In this document: piece after piece, positions 255 to 27,250 of the stretch | Layout: the number at the start of each line of letters is the position of its first letter | How positions within the stretch are numbered: the first letter of the stretch is position 1 | Sequence record: MW749001.1 | Reading direction: 5' to 3' (one strand) | From: Escherichia phage vB_EcoM_Kelasse | DNA: 64,000 nucleotides | Made by a program: the position numbers and the translations under genes | Notes under the pieces: generated by a model | Seen by the model: the letters and a program-made list of their open reading frames with translations, nothing else | Told to the model about the DNA's origin: nothing | The model's database searches: none

Positions 255-545
255 TTGCGGCAACCTTGTCGGGGTTCCACCTGCTAAGGCAAGTGTTTGT
301 ACGAAACGCCGGGATTCGAACCCGGTTATCAAGCAGTTGACGCTACTCAATATTTTTAAAAGGCCATATCTCGACCATATCCGAACGTTCCGTCAAAAAC
401 GCTACTCGGCTTACGGCAAAGATATTTCCTCGAATCGATAATTCGGTGCGCCGTTTCTGCTGTGATATAAGGGGACATTAACAAAACATAAAGATTTATT
501 AATGCCAGTCCTTAAACAGGGAACATCAGTCCGACGACTTACCGG
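255..545 (-). ncRNA. Candidate structured stable RNA(s) downstream of the tRNA array, possibly counterparts of the T4 species 1/2 RNAs (rnaC/rnaD)
   Basis: No credible ORF. Minus strand has a perfect tRNA-like T-arm CCGGG-TTCGAAT-CCCGG (plus 315-331) followed by CGTTTCG that can pair with CGGAACG about 60 nt upstream (one G-U). No canonical D or anticodon arm found. Several short hairpins; the terminator at 223-249 follows. Boundaries are approximate. Confidence 0.3.

Positions 546-24109: not shown

Positions 24110-27250
<3,141 letters not shown>

Follow-up and report, generated by a model that had tools for sequence, protein, structure and literature searches.

The genes rnaD and rnaC specify two small, stable RNAs known from phage T4, and here we describe their counterparts in a 64 kb stretch of Tequatrovirus DNA (Escherichia phage vB_EcoM_Kelasse, sequence record MW749001.1; hereafter, the window). 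All elements of this locus lie on the minus strand, where the order is tRNA-Arg, an open reading frame (ORF) of 116 amino acids (aa), ~270 nt with short TTG-initiated ORFs, and a terminator. Along this order we place a homologue of rnaD (species 2 RNA) at about 564-445, with ends taken by homology from those annotated in T4 and T2L, a short A/U-rich spacer, GAAUUA, at 444-439, a homologue of rnaC (species 1 RNA) at 438-297, located by homology to the same two phages, a 3' trailer at 296-250, and a terminator hairpin at 249-226. A preliminary description, made from the letters of the window, had guessed that this would be the place of the two small stable RNAs that T4 transcribes together with its tRNAs. 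In the T4 reference record (AF158101.6), rnaD is annotated as 'small, stable RNA; species 2 RNA' (119 nt), followed by a 6-nt spacer and rnaC ('species 1 RNA', 139 nt), and the T2L record has both RNAs annotated too. Because these annotations fall at positions aligned with the window, and because the gene order is that of T4 (tRNA cluster, rnaD, 6-nt spacer, rnaC, trailer, terminator), the guess was right. The stretch is collinear with T4 downstream of tRNA-Arg along its whole length, without rearrangement, and is ~95% identical to it across rnaD, rnaC and the terminator; the surroundings are T2-type, unlike those of T4, with 11 tRNA genes and no segB. A BLAST search of GenBank phages with positions 200-600 matched 806 records, nearly all Tequatrovirus, with Escherichia phage JLBYU22 showing 100% identity over the query. 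We conclude with high confidence that the interval consists of the rnaD and rnaC genes, that these are the final two products of the minus-strand tRNA operon transcript, ended by the terminator at 249-226, and that they fold as proposed below. Both RNAs are already known, as textbook T4 features, so no new element was found here.

The rnaC of the window is 97.9% identical to that of T4 (139 of 142 aligned positions), and the annotated ends correspond to 438-300 in T4 and to 437-298 in T2L. As in T4, it is the last gene before the operon terminator, stands in the same strand relation to the tRNAs and follows rnaD after a 6-nt spacer. The T-arm, the acceptor strands and the loops are identical, and the three substitutions all fall in helices and keep the pairing, being C-G for U.G in the helix P3 and, twice, U.G for U-A in hairpin 2. 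BLAST with rnaC matched 750 phage records, and the gene is annotated in T4, RB3 and RB33. The perfect T-arm CCGGG-UUCGAAU-CCCGG that had been read on the minus strand is present at 325-309, followed by CGUUUCG at 308-302. There are 11 copies of the T-loop motif GGTTCRANTCC in the window, where 0.05 would be expected: nine sites lie in tRNAs called by ARAGORN, one in rnaC, and one, GGTTCAAATCC at 26333-26343 (minus), is a chance match, antisense within a plus-strand ORF of 610 aa (25415-27247), without a flanking stem and with a score of 10.7 bits against the rnaC model. A 9-mer reported earlier as duplicated, GAGTAGCGT, does occur twice, at 407-399 and 348-340, and nowhere else in the 64 kb (0.11 expected); in the form GAGUAGCGU, the repeat has GUAGCG as its core. 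The loop of hairpin A of rnaD together with the first stem C (546-552; CGCUAC) is complementary to GUAGCG, a match that is probably coincidental, since rnaC keeps the motif in phages without rnaD.

To define the rnaC fold, we used an alignment of 25 distinct sequences from about seven genera, in which ~12 rows are near-identical Tequatrovirus sequences. RNAalifold, run without hints, paired the 5' end CGAUUCG with CGUUUCG and returned seven further helices, with compensatory changes in 26 of 39 pairs. When the structure was made explicit and a loop-loop helix was added, 93.2% of the cells were paired, compared with 36.7-46.4% when the 3' partners were slid by 1-3 columns; double changes were found in 29 of the 48 pairs, and none of 500 shuffles attained the observed value by any measure. 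The preliminary description had held that a lack of covariation among relatives would speak against a structured RNA, and covariation proved to be strong for the rnaC structure given here, which corrects the acceptor pairing of that description. The single-sequence minimum free energy (MFE) is -49.3 kcal/mol (z = -3.0), and its nested helices match the consensus. A covariance model built for rnaC (R1) found it in the window with 152.8 bits (E = 6e-33), as the sole significant match.

The acceptor stem of rnaC pairs CGAUUCG (437-431) with CGUUUCG (308-302) and is assigned by covariation; its 3' strand is followed by U301 and ACA(A). Pair 3 is A-U in 10 sequences, which are T4-type, and G-C in the other 15. 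Positions 4 and 5 form a conserved tandem U.U, replaced by U-A and C-G in two Tegunavirus sequences, where all seven pairs become standard. The T-arm (325-309) is 100% paired, with two compensatory pairs and a canonical T-loop. Next to the 5' acceptor strand, AGG (430-428) pairs with CCU (363-361) in a D-stem-like helix, for which 97% of the cells are paired, the register in the T4-type rows being off by one in the MAFFT alignment. Two unpaired G residues directly 5' of this CCU (365-364) are invariant, as is an unpaired AGGA. The D-like helix is followed by a long arm at 425-366, delimited by covariation, which comprises P2 (AUAUCU at 425-420 with AGAUAU at 371-366; double changes in 4/4 pairs), P3 (GCCGUA at 417-412 with UAUGGU at 379-374; double changes in 5/6 pairs) and hairpin 1 (409-381), with the loop UUUGACGG at 397-390 and an inner stem that is 100% paired, with double changes in 5/5 pairs. 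The preliminary description had noted that there is no anticodon arm, and this holds: in its place lies an A/U-rich single-stranded linker (360-353), with a conserved AAAAU core, a variable 5' part and no stem. Directly 5' of the T-arm, hairpin 2 forms a long extra arm (352-327) built of UAUUGAGUAG, the loop CGUCAA (342-337) and CUGCUUGAUA, with 98% of the cells paired and double changes in eight of nine counted pairs. The hexamer UUGACG (396-391) in the loop of hairpin 1 is complementary to the loop of hairpin 2, and this helix is 6/6 paired in 25/25 sequences; both strands change together, three Klebsiella-type sequences having UUGGCG/CGCCAA and Tegunavirus having UUGAUG/CAUCAA. Taken together, the top half of rnaC places a terminal stem of 7 bp on a T-arm with a 5-bp stem and a loop of 7 nt, and ends in a short 3' tail, with covariation behind both the acceptor and the T-arm. 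After the acceptor strand, the tail reads U-N-C-A-A in 25/25 sequences, of which 21 have A at N, three have C (hence U-CCA, in the Klebsiella-type sequences) and one has U. The published length of 140 nt fits both the ...U-ACA end and a rebuilt ...U-CCA end.

In the preliminary description, CGUUUCG was paired with CGGAACG, roughly 60 nt upstream. That complement does exist at 392-386, with one G.U as described, but it is not a conserved helix, the true partner being 437-431. No compensatory change supports it in the 25 homologues, where it is mismatched in 14/25 at one position and in 9/25 at another; its 5' strand clashes with the fully covarying stem of hairpin 1; and enforcing it raises the predicted free energy to -36.0 kcal/mol, a cost of ~13 kcal/mol. 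The same pairing misleads gene finders. On the 3' two-thirds of rnaC, annotators and tools have placed tRNA-Lys(UUU) in G4507 (NC_054919) and tRNA-Phe(GAA) in KKP_3262 (OK210076), and ARAGORN calls a tRNA-Met(CAU) on the 3' part in PG7 (locus L017, 8491-8585). These calls of 94-96 nt are a recurring annotation artefact in T-even genomes, and the three different false anticodons come from the variable, stemless single-stranded linker. That this segment (393-300) might nevertheless be a real tRNA gene with a long variable arm, or a decaying pseudo-tRNA using the earlier acceptor pairing, has a remote probability in our estimation. Beyond those three calls, such a gene would account for the 8-bp pairing of ACGGAACG with CGUUUCGU in T4-type sequences and for a weak alignment to the Rfam tRNA-Sec family (16.4 bits, E = 2.8). 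It would, however, have an anticodon that differs by lineage and has no stem, it is called in the window by neither ARAGORN nor Rfam, and the annotated mature RNA begins 45 nt upstream of 393; the pairing itself is absent from the type-B sequences and mismatched in most non-T4 sequences, in addition to its lack of compensatory change, its energetic cost and its conflict with hairpin 1.

The second RNA, rnaD, is less conserved, with 87% identity to T4 rnaD and the differences concentrated in a distal variable hairpin. Like T4 rnaD, it has the 5' ~45 nt and the 3' ~25 nt, including hairpin A, the terminal stem and helix C, in identical form; it differs in that the distal hairpin is another sequence version and in that its 3' end is ACC-G, where T4 has ACC-A. 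Across an alignment of 17 distinct sequences, the 5' 45 nt and the 3' 25 nt are invariant, and the hairpin between them comes in at least three versions of unrelated sequence. The predicted fold (MFE -34.2 kcal/mol, z = -2.9) contains hairpin A (557-541; ACCGG, loop GUCGCUA, CCGGU; RNAalifold consensus), a terminal stem in which GUCGUCG (538-532) pairs with CGGCG(C)AC at 453-446, the latter strand reading CGGCGCAC (RNAalifold and MFE), the 4-bp helix C (UGUU at 525-522 with AGCA at 461-458; RNAalifold) and the variable long hairpin (517-465; RNAalifold and MFE). Two further sequences (L032, L033) replace the closing A-U of hairpin A by G-C, and at the first pair of helix C nine sequences have U-A, six have A-U and two have U.U, with one further change from U.G to C-G. 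These predictions suggest a two-hairpin RNA, in which an invariant 5' hairpin and an invariant terminal stem with internal loops would carry a freely replaceable distal hairpin. At the 3' end, ACCA is found in T4 alone, and most sequences, including the window, have ACCG; an encoded CCA is therefore not a feature of the rnaD family. The 5' neighbour also differs between the phages, being the 116-aa ORF, of trna.2 type, in the window and tRNA-Arg in T4. Since the 5' end of rnaD overlaps the stop codon of this ORF (563-561), rnaD would here be cut from the 3' end of an mRNA. On the plus strand, the reverse complement of hairpin A (541-557) together with a T-rich run scores as a terminator-like site.

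A published evolution experiment bears on the variable hairpin. When phage BW-1 was adapted to E. coli ECOR34, a single convergent single-nucleotide polymorphism (SNP), 164264 (T-C), arose in all three lines; the authors placed it in rnaD and saw no clear structural effect (PMC12685909). In the BW-1 record (OR125554.1; locus position 474), the affected position reads A on the RNA strand, within CACAG-UUUUA-CUAUG, and the T2-type relatives have CUGUG where BW-1 has CUAUG. The variable hairpin has a C.A mismatch in its apical stem, which the change of A to G in the RNA thus turns into the C-G of T2-type phages; the predicted MFE of BW-1 rnaD goes from -25.9 to -31.0 kcal/mol. This analysis takes the deposited genome to be the ancestor and the direction to be T to C; if so, selection may have acted to restore the structure of rnaD in a particular host.

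The two RNAs are distributed differently among phages. Homologues of rnaC were found in Tequatrovirus, Karamvirus (phages of Enterobacter and Klebsiella), Moonvirus, Kanagawavirus (PEi20, Kosakonia 305) and Gelderlandvirus (Melville), and further in Klebsiella Marfa-type phages, EcS1 and Tegunavirus (Yersinia fHe-Yen9-01). Almost always rnaC lies within a tRNA cluster: in Karamvirus, Gelderlandvirus, Moonvirus and EcS1 it stands between tRNA genes with spacers of 4-6 nt and with no rnaD nearby, for example as tRNA-Trp, 5-nt spacer, rnaC, 5-nt spacer, tRNA-Gly, and in Tegunavirus it is directly upstream of tRNA-Trp. In JS98-type and related phages, rnaD is joined straight to the trailer and terminator and rnaC is precisely missing; the rnaC covariance model recovers only tRNAs from these genomes. 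Karamvirus and others do not have rnaD. Since each RNA occurs without the other in some genera, they are independent modules that are merely adjacent in T4-type phages. A pattern scan of metagenomes returned 89 loci, among which ~11 are real rnaC genes (all Tevenvirinae, 10 of them T4-type) and the others ordinary tRNAs that chance to sit downstream of TTCGAGGA. A looser pattern for rnaD, run on IMG/VR, added two useful variants, and its other additions were chance matches in coding DNA.

The elements that flank rnaC complete the transcript. The trailer (296-250) is conserved among relatives and contains the 7-bp hairpin CACUUGC-CUUA-GCAGGUG. It also carries a partial direct repeat of the CCCCGAC...AAGGUUG of the terminator. 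The strong terminator that had been proposed downstream was confirmed as an intrinsic terminator of the tRNA operon, with a hairpin at 249-226, in which a 10-bp stem with seven G-C pairs closes a GAAA loop, and a U tract, the region extending to 221. Transcription of the tRNA cluster is reported to end after the gene for species I RNA (PMC2330249), and the terminator at 249-226 fits this published end. Upstream, 11 tRNA genes lie at 930-1944 according to ARAGORN, with 10 of them confirmed by Rfam. Between tRNA-Arg and rnaD, the ORF list has the 116-aa ORF at 561-911; it matches no family in Pfam, T4 has nothing at this site, and the counterpart in T2L is the ORF 'trna.2'. Within the cluster, a spacer of 114 nt without a tRNA (1086-1199) separates tRNA-His from tRNA-Asn and contains the inverted repeat TGTGACA-GT-TGTCACA; the neighbouring tRNA-Asn is mislabelled as a second tRNA-His in the JLBYU22 record.

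Positions 255-545 had been described as free of credible ORFs, and we agree: only TTG-initiated ORFs of 20-53 aa are present. We give practically no credence to the notion that the interval encodes small proteins, by way of an ORF of 53 aa (189-350) or of 42 aa (356-484), both minus. Such ORFs exist mechanically, and several GenBank records do place a 'hypothetical protein' over the region, but both initiate at TTG, one passes through T-arm, trailer and terminator, substitutions obey base-pairing and not codon logic, with indels of 1-3 nt in the linker, and RNAs are annotated here in T4 and T2L.

How the two RNAs arise and what they do can be approached from this architecture. We propose that rnaC is a tRNA-shaped RNA of ~140 nt, in which the acceptor stem of CGAUUCG and CGUUUCG would stack on the canonical T-arm to form a top half corresponding to the part that tRNA-processing enzymes recognize. 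Below it, the D-like helix would carry the ~60-nt, three-segment arm, an A-rich linker would take the place of the anticodon arm, and the 10-bp extra arm would occupy the site of a class II variable arm, with the apical loops paired as UUGACG:CGUCAA so as either to lock the body into a compact fold or to join two molecules. For biogenesis, an endonuclease would be expected to cut in the A/U-rich spacer and RNase P at the beginning of the acceptor stem; the 3' end would be trimmed to leave a tail of 4 nt, and the T-loop would be modified. The GAAUUA of the spacer resembles the published RNase E consensus, RAUUW, and is presumably a candidate site; a short A/U-rich spacer likewise follows the CCA of the upstream tRNA in those phages where rnaC follows a tRNA. 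In the annotations, the mature RNA begins (U438 in T4, C437 in T2L) where the conserved acceptor stem does, and a tRNA-like substrate would be cut by RNase P at this point. On this proposal, rnaC would be released and matured by the tRNA-processing machinery and would accumulate as a stable RNA. In T4, RNAC and RNAD are described as late-accumulating RNAs, with RNAC confirmed by Northern blot (PMC9697503).

A decoding role for rnaC is unlikely because it has no anticodon arm and usually no CCA. It may instead be a tRNA mimic, occupying or titrating a protein that recognizes the acceptor, T-arm or elbow, either a processing enzyme or a host nuclease that targets tRNAs; we regard this as possible yet doubtful. 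Three features favour a specific ligand over a passive by-product: conservation of the tandem U.U, the AGGA and GG that are both unpaired and invariant, and the putatively locked body. As for rnaD, it would serve as a module that binds protein or RNA by means of its invariant loops, with a structure that is important in certain hosts. The tRNA regions of T-even phages are known to counter tRNA-targeting defences, such as the cleavage of tRNA-Tyr by Septu, in a study that does not mention rnaC or rnaD (PMC13096335). In its widest form, the proposal is that rnaC represents a distinct, uncatalogued class of phage tRNA mimic, which acts as a decoy or inhibitor in the contest of T-even phages with bacterial defences that cleave tRNAs, or else regulates how tRNAs mature, and that rnaD is an independent, host-specific fitness factor, as hinted by the BW-1 SNP; this is speculative, and we judge it unlikely. 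If it were true, the top half with its tandem U.U would present rnaC to a tRNA-binding factor of host or phage, and the loop-locked body would replace the anticodon half.

A number of considerations weigh against this proposal. Both RNAs are known in this phage from their sequence, and the annotations from which we take the mature ends differ from one another by 1-2 nt. The steps involving RNase P, RNase E and T-loop modification are predictions from the architecture and from the position of rnaC between tRNA genes. The tail is mostly U-ACA and not N-CCA, so that full tRNA-like behaviour, including CCA-dependent recognition and charging, is doubtful. The sequences are phylogenetically clustered, and cell counts overstate the number of independent events. 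The loop-loop helix has two independent compensatory events behind it, and its intramolecular form is geometrically uncertain: the pairing may be within one molecule or between two, and with a long arm about twice as long as hairpin 2, a kiss within one molecule would require sharp bending at the internal loops. In rnaD, the invariant segments yield no covariation across the 17 sequences, and the terminal stem is a thermodynamic prediction. Furthermore, deletions that remove rnaC and rnaD are tolerated by T4 in laboratory hosts.

A rival view holds that neither RNA has a function of its own and that both are stable leftovers from processing of the tRNA operon, structured spacers that persist owing to their fold. 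The viability of the deletion mutants would agree with it, as would the existence of whole genera without one of the RNAs (rnaC in the JS98-type phages; rnaD in Karamvirus and others). Roles of RNAC and RNAD were given as unknown in a 2010 review (PMC3014915), and again in a transcriptome and proteome study of 2022 (PMC9697503) and in the BW-1 paper of 2025 (PMC12685909); that no function has been found in ~50 years favours the by-product view, and the absence of a known role in the 2010 review tells against ours. Our literature search, outside of which lie the sequence papers of the 1970s and the T4 genome review of 2003, returned no proposed mechanism for either RNA. By-products would not, however, be expected to have helices kept by compensatory substitutions across at least seven genera, invariant unpaired segments (AGGA, GG, two complementary loops and 45 nt of rnaD), a tandem U.U that is conserved and not repaired, or a convergent adaptive SNP that restores a base pair of rnaD in three independent evolved lines. 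On balance we consider the by-product explanation improbable.

The function of species 1 and species 2 RNA has been open since the 1970s, and in genome records the genes are often unannotated, or entered as a 'hypothetical protein' or a spurious tRNA. The comparative model put forward here supplies experimental handles, namely the acceptor nucleotides, the covarying loop-loop contact, the invariant unpaired bases, the modular presence and absence of each RNA, and ECOR34 as a host where the repair of one base pair of rnaD was repeatedly selected. The rnaC covariance model, which scores homologues above 125 bits and tRNAs below 30 bits, would tidy the annotation of T-even genomes. What remains of interest is that an architecture backed by covariation, a modular distribution and a reinterpretation of the BW-1 SNP make an old question more directly testable.

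Finally, we compared the two RNAs with known classes. In a scan of region 150-950 against Rfam 15, nothing reached a gathering threshold, relaxed matches all scored below 18 bits and no family matched rnaC or rnaD; in the window as a whole, Rfam finds only tRNAs, with sub-threshold noise at the interval. As a canonical tRNA, rnaC is absent from the 11 ARAGORN genes and from the 10 Rfam tRNA matches, the best relaxed match being to tRNA-Sec, which scores 16.4 bits where the gathering score is 47. Neither rnaC nor rnaD gave a BLAST match at E <= 1 in a set of 5,426 complete E. coli genomes, whether by similarity or by long complementarity. With the rnaC covariance model, homologues score 126-158 bits and ordinary tRNAs 14-29 bits, the latter aligning weakly through the frame of acceptor, extra arm and T-arm.

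Of the known systems, tmRNA offers a likeness in its tRNA-like domain, where the acceptor stands on a canonical T-arm, there is no anticodon arm and a large structured insertion separates the acceptor strands. One could accordingly imagine rnaC as a tmRNA-like or chargeable tRNA mimic that is aminoacylated and enters the ribosome or binds EF-Tu, an idea that would be in keeping with this top half, with the canonical T-loop and with the U-CCA encoded in three Klebsiella-phage homologues. We hold it to be very unlikely, since ARAGORN reports no tmRNA, Rfam reports neither tmRNA nor another family, most homologues have ACA and not CCA, there is no tag reading frame and position 3:70 is A-U or G-C, not G.U; rnaC also differs from tmRNA in having no pseudoknot series of the tmRNA type. 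A G.U at 3:70, which had suggested alanine identity and tmRNA, arose under the earlier acceptor pairing, and the idea was dropped with it, the true acceptor stem having A-U or G-C there. A further comparison is with the YrlA RNAs, from which rnaC differs in that it has no Rfam match to any Y RNA family and no evident Ro/Rsr-binding stem; E. coli is not known to have Rsr. YrlA RNAs are bacterial Y-RNA-like tRNA mimics, and rnaC resembles them as a non-coding RNA that joins a tRNA-like module to a second structured module. Class II tRNAs and tRNA-Sec differ from rnaC in that rnaC has no anticodon arm, has the D-arm replaced by a 3-bp helix bearing the ~60-nt arm and has a tandem U.U in its acceptor, and they share with it an extra arm of 9-10 bp placed directly 5' of the T-arm.

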